A stretch of DNA of 64,000 nt from Candidatus Pelearchaeum maunauluense (GCA_030059675.1 JANVYQ010000001.1:96001-160000); one strand, 5' to 3'. Positions 24,781 through 33,823 are shown, counted from the first letter of the stretch. The notes: generated by a model not told the origin, from the sequence alone. Numbers and translations are program-made.

Positions 24781-25128
24781 ATGTCCCTGGCTAGGCTTCT
24801 CCTGCTAGGCTCTGTGCTAGCTGTGGTGCAGGTTTTGGTGGGTGTTGATATGTTTATGCGCGGCTGGCAGCTTGTCTGGCTTCATATAGGGATAGCTGTG
24901 GTTCTCCTCGTAATACTCCTGGCCTGCATACCGCTCTCACGCGGCTCTGGCAGGGTTAGGAGACATGTCATCATAACGCTGGCGCTCCTACTCATACAGG
25001 GTGCTGTCGGCCTTGATATGTTCATGCGTGGCGACGGCGGGATAAGGGAGGTTATGCACTGGATATTCGGCTTCGCCACGCTGGGCTCGTATATTGGCAC
25101 GGCCTCAATAGCGCGGAGACACAGCTAG
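24781..25128 (+). CDS. Small 4-TM membrane protein with intramembrane His
   Basis: Start at 24781; WLHIG, IQGAVG, VMHW. Confidence 0.65.
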   Translation: MSLARLLLLGSVLAVVQVLVGVDMFMRGWQLVWLHIGIAVVLLVILLACIPLSRGSGRVRRHVIITLALLLIQGAVGLDMFMRGDGGIREVMHWIFGFATLGSYIGTASIARRHS

Positions 25129-25697
25129 AGAGACGCGCGCACCATTATGCGCGCGCCCGTTATTACCGACCAGGCCGAGAGCACTATTGCTTCCAGTATC
25201 TCTGGTATGGCCCACCCCTCGGAGGGCGTGCCGAAGATTGCCACCAGCGCCGCTATCCCCATGACGCTGGTGAACGAGCCGTAGAGCGGCCTACCCCCAG
25301 CAACAAGGCCAGCGCCCAAGATTATCATAGCAACTGGGAAGAGTATGAAGTAGCCGAGAGCAACCATCCTGTGTATCTCTGGCCAGTCTAGCGTGAATAT
25401 GCCGACGAGCGCGAGCGACGCTCCCCCAAGAATTAGCATGACGCTCCCTACAGCGTTTATCCTGCTCCGCGGAAGGCTCAGGCGCGCCGCTAGGGCGAAG
25501 AAGAAGTTGAGGACACCAGCTATTATGAGCGCCGTGTTGAAGATTGGAGCAGCCTCACTAACACCCAAGTCGCTCAAAGCGTTAGTCTCCCAGCTAAACC
25601 AGGGAGACACGGCGGTAGCCCAGAAAACCATAACCAGAGCAACAACAGGCCCCACAACACCACACAAACCACCAAAACGAACAAAACCAACAGCCAT
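25125..25697 (-). CDS. DUF998-family membrane protein
   Basis: SPWFSWETNALSDLG, FN..LI, LVGIF, IH..A. Confidence 0.82.
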   Translation of the reverse strand: MAVGFVRFGGLCGVVGPVVALVMVFWATAVSPWFSWETNALSDLGVSEAAPIFNTALIIAGVLNFFFALAARLSLPRSRINAVGSVMLILGGASLALVGIFTLDWPEIHRMVALGYFILFPVAMIILGAGLVAGGRPLYGSFTSVMGIAALVAIFGTPSEGWAIPEILEAIVLSAWSVITGARIMVRASL

Positions 25698-25749
25698 AAC
25701 AAGAACTAGGGAAACAATACTAGATAAACCTTCAACGCCCTAGTTTATG

Positions 25750-25824
25750 TGGGGCCGCCCGGATTTGAACCGGGGACCACGCGGGCCCAAGCCGCGTATC
25801 ATAGCCATGCTAGACCACGGCCCC
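25750..25824 (-). tRNA. tRNA-Pro(UGG), intronless, CCA not encoded
   Basis: GGGGCCGTGGTCTAGCATGGCTATGATACGCGG-CTTGGGC-CCGCGTGGTCCCCGGTTCAAATCCGGGCGGCCCCA cloverleaf. Confidence 0.96.
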
Positions 25825-25910
25825 GCGCGTTCTTGTTTCTTCCGCGTGTTGGGCTGTCTTTAGGTGTTGTGGTGGAAAGGATATAAGAGTCTTTATTCAT
25901 AGTTGTTTCG

Positions 25911-26333
25911 GTGCTGCCTGTGGGGCCCCGTTGGCTGGTTATTGAGGTGATTGATGTCTATCCCACCACGCTGGGCCACTGCCCCCACTTTAACCTTGTG
26001 ACGCATGAGCTCGGCGCGGCTGGGGCTGAGTTCTGCCCCCTCTCAGACCAGGTTGTGGAGTATCCGCGCCACGTTATAGAGAGCCATTACAGGGTTGCTG
26101 GCTTGGTTAAGCGGCTCAAGACCCTGTTGAGAGGCCTCCCGCTGAATGTTCAGGTAAGGATGATAGAAGCCACCTCAGCCGTTGGCTTGTGGAAGTGCCT
26201 ACGCCACAGGGTTAGGAGCCAGTCGGCGATACTCGTTAATGGTAGGAAGATATGCGATGGGGATTACTCGCTGGATGAGGCCGCTGAGAGCATAAGGCGG
26301 GAAGCGCTCAGGATTTTGGGCGAGGGGCGCTAG
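25911..26333 (+). CDS. Hypothetical thioredoxin-like-fold protein, paralog of 32071-32457
   Basis: QVVEYPRHV, LRHRV..AILVNGRK. Confidence 0.65.
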   Translation: MLPVGPRWLVIEVIDVYPTTLGHCPHFNLVTHELGAAGAEFCPLSDQVVEYPRHVIESHYRVAGLVKRLKTLLRGLPLNVQVRMIEATSAVGLWKCLRHRVRSQSAILVNGRKICDGDYSLDEAAESIRREALRILGEGR

Positions 26334-26638
26334 TGGACGGCGTGGCCCTCATGCATTAGCTCCAGCACATCAACCTCGCGCGCCACCAGCTCCTTAATCT
26401 TGATGAAATCACCCACTATGTAGGGGATTAGCCGCAGGGTGTAGTAGTTCCCAAGTATCGGCATCCCTAGAGCCTCGCCCATGATTAATACATAGACTAT
26501 ATCACGATACTTCTGGGCAGTGTGCATGATTTGCTGGTGCATGCCGTAGTAGAACATTCCGAAGAAGAGGTCGCGTAGCTTCTCTTTGAGCGTCCTGCCC
26601 TGCGTGCCTATTCTGAACCTCTCACCCGCGCTACTCAT
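26330..26638 (-). CDS. Small CstA/ArsA-associated protein (copy B)
   Basis: GEALGMPILGNYYTLRLIPY. Confidence 0.75.
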   Translation of the reverse strand: MSSAGERFRIGTQGRTLKEKLRDLFFGMFYYGMHQQIMHTAQKYRDIVYVLIMGEALGMPILGNYYTLRLIPYIVGDFIKIKELVAREVDVLELMHEGHAVH

Positions 26639-26640
26639 GG

Positions 26641-27636
26641 TTAGTCTGGCTTAAAAGTATGTAAATCCTCAATAACGCTCCTAAGAGCTTCTACGCCAGT
26701 TATCTCGCGGGGCGCTAGGCGGACGTAGCCGCGTATGTATTCGCCCAGCTCATCCGCGACCATGTCTAGGTAGCGTCTCTGCTCCTCCAGCTTGGTCTTC
26801 AAGTAGCCCGTCGCGTCGCGCTCAGCCTCCTCGCGCGTGAGCACACTATTCACGAAAACACCGCCAATAGGTATGTCAAAGCCCTTCACCATGCCTATGA
26901 AGCGCTTGACGACGGAGATAGGAAGCGCCTGCGGGAGAGTTACGAAGAAGAAGGCCGTCTGCGTGGGGTCTGTCAAAAAACCCCGCGTTACCTTAAACTT
27001 CTCGTGGAGGCTTATCAGGTCTGCTATAATAGGGTCGTTCCTAATCTCTTCCAGTATCTTCTCCTTTCTCACCGCCAGCTTGTACCTGGTTTCCAGCGCT
27101 TCTTTCCTTGATTGTATCATCCTGCTGAGCCAGAGGCCGTAGAGCTTGCTGAGGCCTATTAGCCGTATGGCGTTGGCTACTGCGGCGGTGTCAAAGACTA
27201 TCGCATCATACTCCCTGCTCTCGTCCACCACTATGTCCATAACGCGGTCAAACATCGCCGCCTCTTGGAAAGCTGGGTTGGTGGTTGCTATGTTTATGAA
27301 CGGAGCTGGGTCTAGGGGGACTTCAGCCCATCTGAAGAACTCGCGCAGCCTGCTTGACATCCGCTCCTTATAGCGCTTCACTATCTCCTCAATCTCCACC
27401 TCTATGGCGTATAGGTTAGGTGAGCCTTCCACCTGCTTTACCTTACCCCCGCTCAGCTCCTGCTCAAAGAGGCTTGAGAGGGAGTGCACGGGGTTGAGCG
27501 AGACTAGGAGCGTTTTCTTGCCATTATCCACGGCCAGCTCATAGGCCAGGGCTGCCGCCAAGACTGTCTTTCCCACGCCGCCCTTACCCCCAACGAAGAC
27601 ATACTTCAAGCCATCAACCAGCGCTTCCCTGGGCAT
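26641..27636 (-). CDS. ArsA/Get3-family ATPase B (degenerate switch I/II)
   Basis: GGKGGVGKT; SLNPVHSL; DTAAVANA. Confidence 0.9.
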   Translation of the reverse strand: MPREALVDGLKYVFVGGKGGVGKTVLAAALAYELAVDNGKKTLLVSLNPVHSLSSLFEQELSGGKVKQVEGSPNLYAIEVEIEEIVKRYKERMSSRLREFFRWAEVPLDPAPFINIATTNPAFQEAAMFDRVMDIVVDESREYDAIVFDTAAVANAIRLIGLSKLYGLWLSRMIQSRKEALETRYKLAVRKEKILEEIRNDPIIADLISLHEKFKVTRGFLTDPTQTAFFFVTLPQALPISVVKRFIGMVKGFDIPIGGVFVNSVLTREEAERDATGYLKTKLEEQRRYLDMVADELGEYIRGYVRLAPREITGVEALRSVIEDLHTFKPD

Positions 27637-27646
27637 GTGTATCCAC

Positions 27647-28636
27647 CTACACGGCAGTGGGCGGGTTTACGAGATATTTCGCAACCTCACCCAGCATGCC
27701 AAGCCCCTTCGGCTCGCGGTCAAACATCGGGATTACCGAGACGACCTTTCCGCCGAACTTCCGCCGTATCTCGTCAAGGTATCTCTGCTGCATCTCAACG
27801 CGGTGGGCTAGGAGCTTTGAGGAGTTGTTGGCCAGACTGCTTGGGAGAACCTGGTTGACCACTATCCCCGAGAGGGTAAGCCCAAGCTCCTTGAACATAT
27901 CCAGCGCCCTCTCTGTGTCAAGTATGGACATCTTCTCAGGCGTCATGACCATGAAGAAAGCGGTCTTCCTCCTGTCCAGCATAACATCCTTGAAGAAGCC
28001 CAGCTTCCTCTGTATGTCGTATAGCTCCTCAAGAACCTTGTCCTCGCTTAGTACGCGCTGGCCGCGCAGGGTTGCGGCTATCTCGTCATACTCCTTAGCC
28101 TTCTTACGCGCGTCTGTTATCCTATCAACCCACATGCTCAGAATCTCCGCCATCGCTATCATCCTAACACCATGACCAAACGGTGGCATGTCAAAGATGT
28201 AGTAATCATACTTACCCTCCGCCAAGTATTCAGCCATAGCATCATAGGTAGCAGACTCGTACATAGCTGGCTCCACCGCAGAGGTCTCAATATACGACTC
28301 AATCTCAGGCGGAATCTCCTCCATCTTATACATCTCTCTAATCTTCCTCTTCACATCCTCAATATACTCGCGTATCCTTTTGTCAGCATCTATCTCGACG
28401 ACGTATAGGTTTGGGGCTACCTCTATCTCGCCCTTCCCGAATATGTCGCGCTCGAAGATGTCGCTGAGTGAGGCTTGGGGGTCTGTGCTGAAGCAGAGGC
28501 AGCGTTTCCCCTCGTTAACCGCTAGGTGGTATGCGAGAGCCGCGCTGCATGTCGTCTTGCCCAGCCCACCCTTACCAGCGAAGATTATCATCTTAGTCTC
28601 GTTGTTCTGCTCCAAGTATTGGCGAAGCCCAATCAT
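27647..28636 (-). CDS. ArsA/Get3-family ATPase A
   Basis: AGKGGLGKTT; STDPQASL; DMPPFGH; TPEKMS; EPKG. Confidence 0.92.
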   Translation of the reverse strand: MIGLRQYLEQNNETKMIIFAGKGGLGKTTCSAALAYHLAVNEGKRCLCFSTDPQASLSDIFERDIFGKGEIEVAPNLYVVEIDADKRIREYIEDVKRKIREMYKMEEIPPEIESYIETSAVEPAMYESATYDAMAEYLAEGKYDYYIFDMPPFGHGVRMIAMAEILSMWVDRITDARKKAKEYDEIAATLRGQRVLSEDKVLEELYDIQRKLGFFKDVMLDRRKTAFFMVMTPEKMSILDTERALDMFKELGLTLSGIVVNQVLPSSLANNSSKLLAHRVEMQQRYLDEIRRKFGGKVVSVIPMFDREPKGLGMLGEVAKYLVNPPTAV

Positions 28637-28648
28637 TATGTCTTCACC

Positions 28649-28927
28649 CTACCCATAGATTATGTCGGTGAAGTCTCTCTCGCGGTAGAACCTATGCTTC
28701 CAAGACTTTATGCTGGGTATCGTGTAGGGTAGGAGCCTGAGCGAGTAGTATGGGGGGAGTATGGGGAGCCCCAACATATCCCCCAAAATCATGAGCGTGA
28801 AGAGATGCTCAATGTACATCCTGGTTTTGAGGACGCCTGTTACCTGCGAGTGAAGCGCCATACCATAAGTTACTTGCTTCACCGCGTCCTTTAGCTTGTC
28901 GAATACTCCTGACCGTTTCTCCGACAT
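28649..28927 (-). CDS. Small CstA/ArsA-associated protein (copy A)
   Basis: GDMLGLPILPPYYSLRLLPY..W. Confidence 0.75.
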   Translation of the reverse strand: MSEKRSGVFDKLKDAVKQVTYGMALHSQVTGVLKTRMYIEHLFTLMILGDMLGLPILPPYYSLRLLPYTIPSIKSWKHRFYRERDFTDIIYG

Positions 28928-29014
28928 CAGAAGCTCGTTAATATAGTTGCTGCTCTCGGCTTTAAAGATTTGTATATTTTCAAAAATTCCAAGAAATAAT
29001 TGGGGAGGGGGTTT

Positions 29015-30754
29015 CTATTGGGCTGGCTTGACGGCGGCAGCCTTCGCTCTGCTCAGCGCCTTGAGCAACAGCGCGAACATCACTATTCCTAGTATGAACA
29101 TTATTACGCCGACGACCACCGAGAAGCCGTTAATCGCCTGCACAGCGCCTATCCCAGCGGCTTCCTTCAAGATGTTCTGCGTCGGATGCAGCAGCATAGC
29201 CTGCGTGGTAGCTACGAAGAATACATAGACCTGATACGCTATAGCCGCGAGCGTCGTAATCATCATGAATATTCCTGGTATCAGCGAGTATGATGATGGC
29301 TTTCTCTGCTGTAGTAGGTAGACCGCGACTATTGTGAGGGCGAAGCCTGCGAGGAGCTGGTTTGTTCCTCCGAAGTAGAGCCAGATGTTTATCCAGCTTC
29401 CAGTGAGGACGAACGCTATAGGCAGGACGAACCCTAGGACCGACGCAACATACTTGTTTCCTAGTATGCTTAGTGATGTGCCGCCGAAGACTTCAGCCAT
29501 GACTACGCGCCAATATCTTCCGAGGATTGTCATTATGGTGATGGCCATGAAGACCATGTAGATGGAGAAGAATGTGCTGATGAATGGCGCTGCTGCCTCT
29601 CCTCCTGCTATCGGTGCGACGAGCTTCGTGGCGCCTTGCGGGAATGTGTCTGGGCTTACGCTCACAGGTGCTAGGACAACCCAAGCCGCGAGGGAGGTTA
29701 GGCCTACTGTGTTCTCCGTTAGCATGGCTCCAGCGCCCACAGGCCTGGCGTCAGTCTCAACGTCTAGCTGTCTAGACGAGATGCCCGTACTGATGAGGCT
29801 ATGCCAGCCAGAGATTGCTCCGCACGCGATAGATACGAAGAGCGCTGGCCATAGAGGCCCAGAGCTAAACGTGCCTTCAAAGCCCTTGAAGGCTGGCACG
29901 GCCAGCTCTATACCCGTCAGCGGCGAGGCGAGGGCGCCAACCGCTAGGGCGATTATAGCAACGATTACTGGATAGTATGCGATGTAGTTCATGGGCGTTA
30001 TCAGCCTTGGGAGCGGCAGTAGGGCGCCGAGGAGTAGTAGGATAACTATCGGAACCAGCCAGAGCGTATATGGCGAGCCTGGTTTTCCGCCCAGCGTTAG
30101 GGAGCCTGGTGGAGGCCATGCGAAGAGTGTTCCGACGATTATCCCAACCACCAGCAGGGCTATGGCCAATGCCGTTACTGCTAGTATGTTCATCCTGACG
30201 TTGAAGATCAGGTGTCCCGTGATGAAGGAGGCAGCAACTAGGAAGAGGAGAGTCCAGAAGGAGCTTGGGAATACATCTATGACCACCGCGACGACGTAGA
30301 TGAAGGCGGCGTTGATTAGCAGGAAGTAGAAGAGGAGGAAGCCCAGCAGTAGTTTTCGCGCGGTCGGGCCTATTAGCTCGTAAGCCAGCGGGCCGAAGGA
30401 CTTGCCCTCATTCCTCACCGAGAGGAAGAGGGCGCTGTAGTCCTGTACCCAGCCTATGAGCAGCGCGGCGAAGATAATCCAGAGGAACGCGGGCAGCCAG
30501 CCGAAGATTAGCGCTATGCCAGGCCCCAGTATCGGGCCCAGCGCGGCTATGCTGTTGAACTGGAAGCCGTATAGCACATAGCGCCCCACTGGGAAGAACT
30601 CCACGCCATCCGTGTACATGTGTGCTGGCGTGGGCCTGGCGGGGTCTGGCTGCCATATCTTGCGGTCTATCGCTTTGCTATATCCCCAGTACGCGAGGGC
30701 GTAGATTAGCAGGCCGACGGCGACGAGAGTAAAAGGTGTGTTGTGTATTGCCAC
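29015..30754 (-). CDS. cstA: Carbon starvation CstA-family transporter
   Basis: TPAH..DGVEF, SIAALGPILGP, IACGAISGWHSL, GAMLTE, IW..FGGTNQLLA. Confidence 0.93.
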   Translation of the reverse strand: MAIHNTPFTLVAVGLLIYALAYWGYSKAIDRKIWQPDPARPTPAHMYTDGVEFFPVGRYVLYGFQFNSIAALGPILGPGIALIFGWLPAFLWIIFAALLIGWVQDYSALFLSVRNEGKSFGPLAYELIGPTARKLLLGFLLFYFLLINAAFIYVVAVVIDVFPSSFWTLLFLVAASFITGHLIFNVRMNILAVTALAIALLVVGIIVGTLFAWPPPGSLTLGGKPGSPYTLWLVPIVILLLLGALLPLPRLITPMNYIAYYPVIVAIIALAVGALASPLTGIELAVPAFKGFEGTFSSGPLWPALFVSIACGAISGWHSLISTGISSRQLDVETDARPVGAGAMLTENTVGLTSLAAWVVLAPVSVSPDTFPQGATKLVAPIAGGEAAAPFISTFFSIYMVFMAITIMTILGRYWRVVMAEVFGGTSLSILGNKYVASVLGFVLPIAFVLTGSWINIWLYFGGTNQLLAGFALTIVAVYLLQQRKPSSYSLIPGIFMMITTLAAIAYQVYVFFVATTQAMLLHPTQNILKEAAGIGAVQAINGFSVVVGVIMFILGIVMFALLLKALSRAKAAAVKPAQ

Positions 30755-30810
30755 GGCCTTTTTCCCTCTCTTTTTAAGCGTTAATCGCTACTGAATTCTA
30801 TATAAAATTT

Positions 30811-30840
30811 TTAAAATCTTTTAAAATCACTACAAATCAC
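30811..30840. promoter_or_regulatory. Three 10-bp-spaced AAATC direct repeats in the AT-rich divergent cstA promoter
   Basis: TTAAAATCTT TTAAAATCAC TACAAATCAC next to a TATA-like box at ~30799-30806. Confidence 0.4.
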
Positions 30841-30873
30841 AAAAAGTTAAAACTTAAAAATGATGACGCAGGT

Positions 30874-31440
30874 ATGACGCCAAGCCTTGAGAATGAGATT
30901 TTTTCCAACAATTCCCAGGTGAGGTGTTTATGTTTGGATGAAAAATTCGTTGAGCATATCTTATCTGTCGGCAATCCTGTCCTTGGTGTTTTCCGCTACC
31001 TGGTTCTCCAGCTCCCTGAGGGCTGGGTTGTTAAGAGTAGCGAGATACCTCCAGAAGTTTCATACACAACAGAGTATAATGGCGTTGGATATGTTGTGGA
31101 TGGGCTCACCCATCATTACATTACCAGCGTGCTTGGTGAGGAGACTCTACAACTAACGATAAGGTGTAACAGGATTAGGGGCGAGCTCGGCGTGAATACG
31201 CGGGGCTTGGGTAGCTATTCGCTTGGCAGAACACAGGTAGCTGGACATTCATGCGTCTATGTTTATGGTGAGAAGCTGGTGGGGTTCTTCAGGAAGGAGA
31301 GGATGCGCTATCTCGCTATGGTCTTTGATTGCGGCTTTACGGGTAGGCGTATAGAGCTACGCCTCTTGGGGAGATACTCAAGCGGCGCCGCTATGGAGAG
31401 GCTTATCCCAGCGTTAGAGCAGAGCCGTTGCCACGGCTAA
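30874..31440 (+). CDS. Hypothetical beta-rich protein (start may be TTG ~30934)
   Basis: Open frame with GAGGTG upstream of TTG; coupled to the next gene. Confidence 0.6.
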   Translation: MTPSLENEIFSNNSQVRCLCLDEKFVEHILSVGNPVLGVFRYLVLQLPEGWVVKSSEIPPEVSYTTEYNGVGYVVDGLTHHYITSVLGEETLQLTIRCNRIRGELGVNTRGLGSYSLGRTQVAGHSCVYVYGEKLVGFFRKERMRYLAMVFDCGFTGRRIELRLLGRYSSGAAMERLIPALEQSRCHG

Positions 31441-32108
31441 ATGGGGTGCACTACGGCGTGGTTCTACACGCGATTGATGCGCGCACACTCGTCTTCTACC
31501 TCGCTCTCCTACTCCTCGCCTCATATATAGGCGGGAGAATTTACGGCAGCGTGAGGGTTAATAGGCTACGCTTGAGGCTGGCTCCGATGCTTGAGCGGCT
31601 TGGCTCAAAGCCGCGCATACGCTCTGCTGGGAGTAGGATGCTCGCTTTCTCTGGCGAGTCCCTGGGCAGGCTCATAGGCCAGTACTCGCTCACCATCTTC
31701 CTACTTGGCAGGGAGAACCCGCTCAACTGGCTAATAGCCCGCGCAGCTGGCAGGGGTGATATGGTCATTCTACGCTGCCGCGTTAAGGGCGAGATAAGGC
31801 GCGAGCTGGATATAATAAGGAAGGGGACAGCCCCTTATAAGCGGCTGGCCAAAAGACGCGTAGAGGGCGTTATCAAGGACTTTGGCGACTCTGTGGCTAT
31901 CATACCAAGCCAGCACGCGGCTGGTTATGATGCTGTTGACGGCGCTGTGGAGACGCTTAGGAGAATAGCTGGAATGTGGAGTTTCTCCCTCCGCCGCGAG
32001 ATGCCAGAGCTTATAGTAACGTTCTCCCTCAAGAATATTGAAGCAGAGCTGGAGCAGGCTATTAGGGCGGTTAATGACTCTGTGCAGCTTCTCGTGGGGC
32101 GCTCCTGA
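31428..32108 (+). CDS. Hypothetical single-TM protein
   Basis: N-terminal TM, LLGRENPLNWL motif. Confidence 0.65.
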   Translation: MPRLNGVHYGVVLHAIDARTLVFYLALLLLASYIGGRIYGSVRVNRLRLRLAPMLERLGSKPRIRSAGSRMLAFSGESLGRLIGQYSLTIFLLGRENPLNWLIARAAGRGDMVILRCRVKGEIRRELDIIRKGTAPYKRLAKRRVEGVIKDFGDSVAIIPSQHAAGYDAVDGAVETLRRIAGMWSFSLRREMPELIVTFSLKNIEAELEQAIRAVNDSVQLLVGRS

Positions 32109-32457
32109 TTCTACGTTTTACCGCCTCCTTTACTGCTTCGGCGCCGCGTGAGGCGTCTACAACCTCGCGGCCATCTATCACCGCCCAAATCCCATTAGGA
32201 AGCCTGTGCCGCATCATGAGCCACGCCCCGCGTGGAGAGAGTGGGTTAACCACGCTCAGCCTAAGTATAGAGCCGAACTCCCTCACAAGCTCCCGATAAA
32301 TCACGGAGACCCGCACCTGGTTCTCAGCAACATCACGCGGATACTCGCTTATCTGCATCTCATAGCTATCATGAACCGAGACGCAGAAAGCCTTACACTT
32401 ATTGCTATAGACCGTAGGCAGCAACGATAAGAGCTCAACCTTAACCAAACGCACCAA
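32071..32457 (-). CDS. Hypothetical thioredoxin-like-fold protein, paralog of 25911-26333
   Basis: QISEYPRDV, MRHRL..AVIDGRE. Confidence 0.65.
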   Translation of the reverse strand: MVRLVKVELLSLLPTVYSNKCKAFCVSVHDSYEMQISEYPRDVAENQVRVSVIYRELVREFGSILRLSVVNPLSPRGAWLMMRHRLPNGIWAVIDGREVVDASRGAEAVKEAVKRRIRSAPREAAQSH

Positions 32458-32671
32458 CAGCGGTCTCCACGAGGTTCATGTGCGTGGTTGCTTATTTATC
32501 CTACCCTAAAACACTCAAGGCAGCTCATAGTAGCTTCCTGGAGTCCAGCGAGGCGATTATCAGCCAGGCTGGTCTGATTAGGGGGAAAAGCAGGTAGATT
32601 GGTAGCATGAGCATAAGAGGTAGAGCTCTCCTCTATAAGAATAAGAGCTAGCGTTATTTGCTAGATAGACC

Positions 32672-33823
32672 ATGGTGCGGCGCGGCGCTTATGCTGCCAT
32701 CCTCGTTCTGGGGATAGTGAGCCTGTTGGGTGATTTTGTGTATGAGGGCGGCCGCGCCGTAATCCCTGGCTACCTACCAGCCCTGGGTGCTTCCGCATTC
32801 GTCCTCGGCCTCGTCGGCGGCTTGGGCGATGCGGTGAGCCAGGTCTCGCGCCTGGCTACGGGATACCTAGCCGACAGGACACGCGCATACTGGCCGCTTA
32901 CCATAGCTGGCTACTCCATGATAGCAGCAATACCCCTGCTGGCTCTCGCGGCGAGCTGGGAGGCGGCAGCCCTACTGATACTGCTGGAACGCCTCGGGAA
33001 GGCTCTTAGAACACCCGCACGCGACGCAATCCTATCATTCGTCGGCAAGGAGGTGGGGGCTGGAAAGGCCTTCGGAATCCACGAGTTCCTAGACCAGCTC
33101 GGAGCCGTCGCTGGTCCTCTGGCCATGGCGCTAATCCTGCTGGAGGCGCGGGGGGCAGGAGGCTACAGCACCGCCCTCGCATGGACACTACCACCATTCG
33201 CGGCGTTGATGGTCGCGATACTCTACGCGTATGGGAGGTTTAGACACATAGCGGTAGCGGGTAAGAGCACGTTGGGCGGCGTCAGGCAAAAGCTGGGTAG
33301 GCGCTTCACCCTATACACGGCGGCGGTATCCATCAACACCCTAGGCCTAATCTACATACTACTAATACCATACAAGGCGGAGCAGATACTCAGCCAAGCC
33401 TGGGCTGTACCGCTCATCTACCTAGCCATACAGCTTATAGATGCGCCAGTAGCTCTTCTAGCTGGCCACTGGTTTGACAAGACTGGGGTCAGGCTTCTTG
33501 CTCTTCCTTTCGTCCTCTCAATACCCGCGACACTCATGACATTATACGCTTATGATATGGCTACGCTCATCGCTGGTGCGGCTGTCTTCGGCGTGGTTCT
33601 GGGGATGCAGGAATCCATCTACAGGGCCAGCGTGGCTGTTATGACGCCAGAAGAGGCGCGCGGCTCCGCCTACGGTGTCTTCAGCGCCGCCTATGGAATT
33701 AGCCTAATGGGAAGCGGCGCAGTATACGGCTACCTCCTCCAAGCACCAGAGATTGCAACAGCTTATGTGGTAATAACACAGCTCGCGGCGCTCACACTAC
33801 TCAGAGCCAGCACGCGAGTTTAA
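32672..33823 (+). CDS. MFS transporter
   Basis: GYLADRT, ERLGKALRTPARDA, about 12 TM. Confidence 0.9.
   Translation: MVRRGAYAAILVLGIVSLLGDFVYEGGRAVIPGYLPALGASAFVLGLVGGLGDAVSQVSRLATGYLADRTRAYWPLTIAGYSMIAAIPLLALAASWEAAALLILLERLGKALRTPARDAILSFVGKEVGAGKAFGIHEFLDQLGAVAGPLAMALILLEARGAGGYSTALAWTLPPFAALMVAILYAYGRFRHIAVAGKSTLGGVRQKLGRRFTLYTAAVSINTLGLIYILLIPYKAEQILSQAWAVPLIYLAIQLIDAPVALLAGHWFDKTGVRLLALPFVLSIPATLMTLYAYDMATLIAGAAVFGVVLGMQESIYRASVAVMTPEEARGSAYGVFSAAYGISLMGSGAVYGYLLQAPEIATAYVVITQLAALTLLRASTRV

Follow-up and report, generated by a model that had tools for sequence, protein, structure and literature searches.

Gene clusters in which a CstA-family permease is encoded together with a homologue of the ATPase ArsA were described by Castillo and Saier (2010, Int J Microbiol, PMC2963123), whose survey counts 26 of them. 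Twenty-four of these contain cstX, the gene for a protein of about 90 amino acids (aa), and five, which are archaeal, contain cstY, which encodes a protein of about 210 aa with a single transmembrane segment (TMS), while the ArsA homologues are about 330 aa long. The arrangements, of the type cstA-cstX-(cstY)-arsA homologue, make up ArsA clusters 14-18 of the survey, and in cluster 15 there are adjacent ArsA pairs with 31% and 25% identity, as well as two organisms in which CstX is doubled. None of the 26 clusters contains ars genes. The authors inferred that CstA, CstX and the ArsA homologues have evolved in concert, and in their proposal CstA is energised by the ArsA homologue, to which CstX links it (PMC2963123). 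Thermococcus kodakarensis appears there as a carrier of cstA, two cstX genes and cstY. The locus considered here is one more member of this widespread module. It lies in a window of 64,000 nucleotides, which is the whole stretch of DNA that was analysed, from Candidatus Pelearchaeum maunauluense of the Caldarchaeales (GCA_030059675.1, JANVYQ010000001.1:96001-160000), and encodes CstA, two small proteins (X1 and X2), two ATPases of the Get3/ArsA class (A1 and A2) and the flanking or divergent genes F140, D188, D226 and F128. The initial annotation called it an uncharacterised module, which does not hold in the sense of undescribed, as the core cluster has been in print since 2010. Beyond Castillo and Saier, the papers listed by literature searches included no other work on CstX, cory-CC-star or PF25952 in this sense and no experimental test of the ATPase module.

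The locus shares with the published clusters CstA, a small protein in the size range of CstX, single-domain ArsA homologues of about 330 aa and the lack of ars genes, and X1 and X2 (92 and 102 aa) would correspond to CstX by size and position. It differs in that an ATPase pair, an occasional duplication in the survey, is the rule here, and in that CstY-like genes, confined to archaea there, are also bacterial. What the present analysis adds is the asymmetry of the pair, in which A2 is degenerate in its catalytic motifs, a fold like that of CCDC47 and TtfA predicted for the probable CstY, and, in this lineage, a module of nine genes that takes in thioredoxin-like and PsbP-like genes.

The linkage of the genes, their phyletic pattern, the asymmetry of A1 and A2 and the precedent of the ArsA-ArsB pump lead us to favour, though tentatively, the reading that the locus encodes an ATP-coupled multi-subunit CstA transport complex. 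ArsA, which is of the same ATPase class, docks on ArsB. By analogy, A1 and A2 would form a pseudo-symmetric heterodimer with one catalytic site, in which A1 would hydrolyse ATP whereas A2 would bind ATP and be unable to split it, much as if ArsA, with its two unequal halves, had been divided into separate chains. X1 and X2 would be fixed small subunits that either connect the two ATPases with the permease or relay the conformational change of the pair, D226 would serve CstA as a membrane accessory as TtfA serves MmpL3, and the thioredoxin-like and His/Cys proteins could be facultative redox or metal-dependent accessories. Transport by CstA would be driven or gated by ATP turnover, in the way that ArsA acts on ArsB, itself a secondary carrier. 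Like the ArsA-ArsB pump, the module has two non-equivalent nucleotide-binding units of this class and a carrier that is able to work alone. Unlike the pump, the units are two polypeptides and not one fused chain, one of them is without the catalytic Asp, the permease is unrelated, and there are neither metalloid-binding cysteines nor ars neighbours. Should CstA be driven or gated by the two ATPases, the module would join ArsAB as a second case in which an ATPase of the Get3/ArsA class converts a secondary carrier, here with a built-in inactive subunit. CstA-family transporters are widespread.

A scan with an alignment of X proteins, using one genome per species, gave at least 619 stretches of which 612 were confirmed, and for the whole collection of stored species genomes the module is estimated at about 1,200 stretches, spread over many phyla of bacteria and archaea. 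The 80 best loci with X1 relatives, which were annotated with the window proteins as queries, come from archaea (Caldarchaeales, Bathyarchaeia, Nitrososphaeria) and bacteria (Chloroflexota, Actinomycetota, Desulfobacterota, NC10, Terriglobia, Bacillota, Phycisphaerae). At least one ATPase is found at 75 of the 80 loci and both, with X1 directly followed by A1 and A2, at 69; cstA lies within 8 kb at 54, and at least two X genes are likewise present at 54. Nine of the 11 loci that lack both ATPases or one of them reach a contig end within 1 kb of the expected gene. The other two are bacterial: at one (L057, 8276-9490) no ATPase is found in the 1.2 kb following X, and at the other (L064, 2754-3302) A1 is reduced to a fragment comprising residues 55-209, suggestive of decay. 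D226-like genes accompany 42, F140-like genes 36 and D188-like genes 20 of the 80 loci. When the count is restricted to the 28 loci where the full 8 kb to either side is available, all 28 have both ATPases and 21 have CstA, and alignment profiles find D226-like proteins at 17, F140-like (thioredoxin-like) proteins at 15 and D188-like proteins at seven. In bacteria the genes usually run F140-like, cstA, X, X, A1, A2, and D226/CstY-like genes occur in bacterial loci as well. The initial annotation proposed a gene-neighbourhood survey, which finds that the genes do co-occur across genomes of bacteria and archaea; it also took the doubling of ATPase and small protein for a distinguishing feature, but with these counts the doubling is the norm and not a variant of a simpler triad.

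Within the order, 41 genomes were compared, including that of Ca. Pelearchaeum maunauluense, with a threshold of E <= 1e-10 for the ArsA family. X occurs in 20 of them, a 21st match being spurious, and cstA in the same 20, and ArsA-family genes, always two unless contigs break, occur in 19 of these, the exception being a genome that is 78% complete. With these queries none of the three was detected in the remaining 21 genomes; 17 of these have a completeness of 90% or more, and two that share a genus with carriers are 99% complete. This pattern implies several gains or losses. The 1.79 Mb genome studied here (94% complete) has a single cstA locus, and A1 and A2 are its only ArsA/Get3-family genes. 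The nine genes stay grouped in relatives of the same order while their order and strand are shuffled: in one genus X2 and F140 are on the opposite strand, in another X2 is elsewhere in the genome, and in a third the two X genes are side by side and cstA is convergent. F128 orthologues are also found within the cluster in relatives. Since the flanking and divergent genes accompany the core in these shuffled orders, the nine genes constitute one module. Where X-A1-A2 lies away from cstA, a cstA gene is found elsewhere in five of five such genomes examined; this is only mild support for a functional tie, as cstA is common and occurs in seven of 14 control genomes. No recurrent alternative partner is seen beside the X-A1-A2 loci without cstA, whose neighbours are mutually unrelated.

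This distribution bears on the reading that A1 and A2 are a housekeeping Get3 for tail-anchored (TA) proteins that lies beside cstA by chance. The two are the sole members of their family in the genome and both pass the cut-off of the Get3/TRC40/ArsA subfamily, TIGR00345 (231.9 bits for A1 and 187.2 for A2, cut-off 135), but the function of the family is dispensable in this order, as no Get3 was found at E <= 1e-10 in 21 genomes, 17 of them at least 90% complete, and the presence of the family tracks cstA with an order X-A1-A2 that is kept across phyla. Together with the degenerate motifs of A2 and the missing CxxC described below, this makes a housekeeping role very improbable.

Both ATPases are single-domain chains (329 and 331 aa), as compared with about 580 aa for the two-domain fused ArsA. 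The closest solved relative of A1 is the Get3 of Methanocaldococcus jannaschii (3ug6, E 3.1e-55), to which it scores 191 bits versus 108.9 to Escherichia coli ArsA (1f48). With Get3/TRC40 (3ug6, 3zq6) the pair shares its best sequence matches, the single-domain architecture, a deviant Walker A motif and, in A1, Get3-type switches. In contrast to the Get3 homodimer, A1 and A2 are an obligate pair of paralogues (29% identity, E 6e-41) that sister genomes can do without and that goes with cstA, and neither has the CxxC zinc site of the dimer interface. All 74 orthologues of A1 retain its catalytic motifs, with GKGGLGKTT as the P-loop, Asp in switch I and Gly-His in switch II. A2 also keeps the P-loop (69 of 69), but in every one of its 69 orthologues the catalytic Asp of switch I has given way to Asn, the motif being NPVHSL, with SLNPVH aligning with STDPAH of the M. 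jannaschii protein, and in its switch II the Gly is lost in all 69 and His is replaced by Asn in 64. In yeast Get3 the catalytic residue is D57, and the D57N variant binds ATP and does not hydrolyse it (PMC12506534); A2 would be naturally D57N-like, an equivalence that is drawn from the motif alignment and not from a structure. With A1 intact and A2 carrying Asn in every orthologue, the two are probably a half-active pair, and judging from the same motifs they are no symmetric Get3 dimer. In a FastTree phylogeny built from 143 sequences, all 69 members of A2 and no others group together on a long branch with support 1.0, although the A1 and A2 labels were assigned by best hit and the split is therefore partly built in; both clades are ancient, each with bacteria and archaea.

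No Cys is found in A1 or A2 at the place of QCDFC of 3ug6, as the initial annotation had noted, and the CxxC is also missing from some archaeal Get3 proteins (PMC6593721). Alignments of 59 rows contain no invariant or near-invariant Cys in either ATPase. The notion of an arsenite/antimonite pump ATPase (ArsA) in two pieces can point to the Pfam ArsA_ATPase matches of both proteins, but their scores against the ArsA pump ATPase model TIGR04291, 98.3 and 101.8 bits, are far under its cut-off of 650. A scan of 11 open reading frames (ORFs) at 25125-33823 with Pfam and NCBIfam found no ars family besides the ATPases (no arsB, acr3, arsC, arsD or arsR), just as ars genes are missing from the published clusters, and no mer or similar genes. 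With no conserved Cys either, this notion can hardly be credited, and the earlier judgement that arsenic efflux and classical Get3 are both poor fits is borne out. Two different Get3-like ATPases are also encoded side by side as BagA and BagB of Mycobacterium tuberculosis (NF053622, NF053621), which act together, but the matches of A1 and A2 to the BagA model are weak (51.1 and 55.1 bits, cut-off 400). A complex of A1, A2 and X1 was predicted with a score of 0.62 in three runs; replacing the partner X1 gave 0.00 and 0.00, and replacing A2 gave 0.44, less than 0.20 below the complex, so that the prediction carries no weight either way.

X1 is 29% identical to its paralogue X2 over 80 aa (E 3e-13), and both have the motif G(D/E)xLG(L/M)PIL..YY(S/T)LRL(L/I)PY that the initial annotation pointed out. 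In the form GDxLGxPILPPYYSLRLLPY this motif is nearly invariant from archaea to Chloroflexota, and in an alignment of 59 rows G22, G49, G53, P55, P67, P71 and W76 are invariant and no Cys is conserved. Among the X1 homologues in the matches listed, 120 of 120 bear the precomputed label PF25952, including one that is 98% identical; PF25952 is DUF7990 according to the Atlas, where the nearest clusters are DUF7990 at a score of 0.96. The motif is preceded by a short hydrophobic stretch of borderline strength (the maximum KD19 has a median of 1.56 over 59 sequences) in which an Asp is conserved, so that a true membrane span is doubtful; the stretch is followed by PPYY. CstX is described as a single-TMS protein by Castillo and Saier, which the Asp, Gly and three Pro of the motif make doubtful.

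Like cory-CC-star and YbdD/KCU-star, X1 and X2 are small proteins encoded beside cstA. The cory-CC-star family named in the initial annotation does exist as NCBIfam NF041419, and its C-terminal CC is indeed missing here, as neither X1 nor X2 ends in CC. The view of the two as a cory-CC-star variant fares less well: their matches cover the middle part of the model (E 3.6e-7 and 3.7e-8) and reach only 30.1 and 33.2 bits against a cut-off of 80, and neither protein contains any Cys. By these sequence matches they are members of DUF7990 and distant kin of cory-CC-star. No similarity was detected between DUF7990 and E. coli YbdD (hhalign probability 0.35%). YbdD adjoins cstA (L118, 3683-3880), ends in Cys-Cys and scores 70 bits against the NCBIfam model 'KCU-star family selenoprotein', under the cut-off of 85. 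A Cys-containing C-terminal dipeptide recurs in small proteins beside cstA, with CH in D188, CC in YbdD and the CC for which NF041419 is named, and it is possible that such endings have a common redox 'tail' function.

A database protein of 197 aa (P0122) consists of tandem DUF7990 units in one chain, an X2-like unit followed by an X1-like unit. Known from one record only, on a contig of 3.4 kb, it may be a real fusion or a sequencing artefact, and it hints, as an isolated and unverified case, at joint action of the two paralogues. No fusion of X with an ATPase or with CstA was seen among longer proteins, which is weak evidence since few candidates were scored. One candidate, an apparent X match in a 721-aa frame of a genome of the order, was rejected because the frame is that of an ABC-type permease, and apparent fusions of X, F140 or ATPases at five loci (L047, L062, L068, L072, L096) are over-extended frames in GC-rich DNA. 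In some relatives additional or relocated X2-like genes stand alone, far from the cluster (L029, 6822-7208; L024, 7671-7955; L027, 4969-5418), and no other module genes were detected around these copies within 13-16 kb.

D226 is 216-226 aa long and has one N-terminal transmembrane helix, and by size and this single helix D226 is probably the CstY of Castillo and Saier. Its AlphaFold2 (AF2) model, with a predicted local distance difference test (pLDDT) score of 90.8, shows the helix followed by an alpha/beta globular domain, which is the architecture of CCDC47 and TtfA. The three best chains found by Foldseek in the PDB come from CCDC47-containing ribosome-translocon complexes (E 1.1e-6, 1.5e-6 and 1.0e-3). 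VIA-align gives Z 15.4 with 7tm3_4 (root-mean-square deviation 3.6 over 208 residues), 13.0 with 9i78_4 and 10.7 with a further CCDC47 chain, as well as 11.5 with mycobacterial TtfA (6t84), while the next unrelated row has Z 7.2; the identity of the 7tm3 and 6w6l chains as CCDC47 is itself deduced, whereas for 9i78 CCDC47 is modelled from 76 to 370 (PMC12572126), which fits the D226-aligned range of 76-368. On the strength of this model D226 folds like CCDC47 and TtfA. At the sequence level the likeness is faint: Pfam CCDC47 (PF07946) has sub-threshold matches in four of 21 family members (best 19.8 bits, threshold 27.7) and none in D226 itself, and a search of PDB sequences with the D226 profile did not find CCDC47 but only chance-level G-gamma matches at E >= 0.031. 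The D226 model aligns to residues 135-397 of the CCDC47 chain and stops at residue 226, corresponding to about chain residue 397, and it is therefore without the C-terminal latch helices and the coiled coil that reach the ribosome in CCDC47. TtfA ranks among the CCDC47 chains in the match list, and in these structural comparisons TtfA and CCDC47 appear to share a fold; none of the papers listed by literature searches names TtfA together with CCDC47 or deals with prokaryotic relatives of CCDC47.

CCDC47 is a biogenesis factor of the PAT complex and multipass translocon and also of the SND3 translocon, while TtfA is an accessory factor of MmpL3. The resemblance of D226 to both brings in a second reading, in which the locus encodes a dedicated membrane-protein biogenesis or quality-control machine that inserts, assembles or stabilises CstA or its small subunits, with A1 and A2 holding hydrophobic segments (the DUF7990 helix or CstA) together with the CCDC47-like and PsbP/Eag-like proteins. 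It would account for archaeal Get3 being the closest solved relative of both ATPases, for the matches of D226 to CCDC47 of the multipass and SND3 translocons, which are well over the unrelated rows, for the borderline hydrophobicity of the conserved X helix, and for the fold class of D188, which includes the transmembrane-domain-binding Eag/SciW chaperones, although these are tied with PsbP, Mog1 and others. However, CstA as such needs no such factor, as E. coli, Bacillus subtilis and Corynebacterium glutamicum have cstA and no ArsA-family match at E <= 1e-10; the stretch of X, short and with its conserved Asp and PPYY, is unlike a tail anchor; D226 does not have the helices that seat CCDC47 on the ribosome; and TtfA shows the same fold in an accessory of a working transporter. 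A biogenesis role is thus a somewhat unlikely, if serious, alternative. Were the pair to assemble CstA, Get3-like and CCDC47-like proteins would be cooperating outside eukaryotes, which would bear on the origin of membrane-protein biogenesis in the endoplasmic reticulum (ER). A bolder version, which we regard as unlikely, is that of a prokaryotic ATP-driven intramembrane chaperone in which a Get3-class heterodimer and a mini-CCDC47 handle a multipass membrane protein together. Counterparts of the eukaryotic GET and PAT/multipass translocon factors, which belong to separate ER pathways, would then be joined in one operon-encoded machine, and this could be the kind of system ancestral to the ER factors.

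Several points weigh against the favoured ATP-coupled transport complex. CCDC47 is a biogenesis factor and no transporter subunit, and both ATPases score nearer to archaeal TA-binding Get3 than to ArsA. ArsA drives the efflux of a ligand that is bound via cysteines, and A1 and A2 are without conserved Cys; we know of no precedent for uptake that is driven by a cytoplasmic Get3/ArsA-type ATPase. CstA is unlinked to X-A1-A2 at seven of the 28 full-length loci, and the genomes counted within the order are kin, so that the all-or-none pattern represents fewer independent events than genomes. Finally, while gene content, conservation, linkage, motif states and predicted folds are shown, the heterodimer, every contact between the module proteins and the coupling to transport are what we infer, and a dedicated biogenesis role is a close rival.

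The five genes cstA, X1, A1, A2 and X2 are intact ORFs arranged head to tail on the minus strand, which agrees with the run of permease, small protein, two ATPases and small protein read initially. The intergenic gaps are 87 nt between cstA and X1, 12 nt between X1 and A1, 10 nt between A1 and A2 and 2 nt between A2 and X2. The nine genes are collected in the table.

Table. Genes of the cstA module, with positions counted from the first letter of the window
Gene	Position	Strand	Length (aa)	Product	Further detail
F140	25911-26333	plus	140	thioredoxin-like, marginal evidence	
X2	26330-26638	minus	102	second DUF7990 paralogue	ends GHAVH
A2	26641-27636	minus	331	Get3/ArsA-class ATPase, paralogue of A1	Pfam ArsA_ATPase E 4.4e-53
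A1	27647-28636	minus	329	Get3/ArsA-class ATPase	Pfam ArsA_ATPase E 3.1e-70
X1	28649-28927	minus	92	DUF7990 protein, no Cys	ends IIYG
cstA	29015-30754	minus	579	CstA-family multipass permease	Pfam PF02554 E 3.7e-101
D188	30874-31440	plus		PsbP/Mog1-like beta-sandwich (predicted), C-terminal Cys-His	true start probably near 30934
D226	31428-32108	plus		single-pass membrane protein, CCDC47/TtfA-like globular domain (predicted)	
F128	32071-32457	minus	128	paralogue of F140	CKAFC motif

The AF2 model of D188 (pLDDT 90.0) is a PsbP/Mog1-like sandwich, for which VIA-align gives Z 9-11 to PsbP, Mog1, LpqN, EagT6/SciW and DcrB, all tied, while the D188 profile has no match among PDB sequences. In an alignment of 18 rows H125, C153, R158, C186 and H187 are invariant and all 18 proteins end in Cys-His, two of them with one extra Gly. 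The Atlas entry begins at residue 21, from which the probable start in the table follows. F140 and F128, which enclose the cluster, are paralogues (23% identity, E 2e-11) as the initial annotation had it, but the thioredoxin-like nature that it ascribed to them has marginal, though consistent, matches behind it. The three top PDB matches of the F140 profile are the archaeal thioredoxin-fold proteins 1fo5 (E 0.00099), 1nho and 1a8l, and the matches to thioredoxins range from E 0.00099 to 0.049; among 24 family members Pfam finds DUF1525 in seven and Thioredoxin_3 in four. P18, C24 and G92 are invariant in the family, the Cys being the first of a CxxC that is present in many members, and bacterial and bathyarchaeal members carry HCxHC. 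F140 of this locus reads HCPHF and has lost the second Cys, while F128 has CKAFC.

These proteins are the basis for a reading in terms of redox or metal(loid)/chalcogen handling, in which CstA would be a conduit and the CxxC and His-Cys-Cys-His proteins would carry redox equivalents or a thiophilic ligand to or from the complex of ATPases and permease. ArsD has a thioredoxin fold, and F140 is its possible counterpart and would take its part. The invariant first Cys of the F140 family, the invariant H125, C153, C186 and H187 of D188 with its CH end, and the vicinal Cys or Sec at the end of other CstA-linked small proteins (YbdD, KCU-star, cory-CC-star) all suit such a role. It is nevertheless quite unlikely, as the parts concerned are facultative (15 and seven of the 28 full-length loci), A1, A2 and X are without conserved Cys, F140 itself is without the second Cys of its CxxC, and the 11 ORFs include no ars, mer or similar genes.

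The module is bordered by genes for a DUF998 membrane protein (25125-25697, E 9.7e-23) and a transporter of the major facilitator superfamily (MFS; 32672-33823, E 3.1e-19), which are syntenic in a relative of the same genus and not in more distant relatives.

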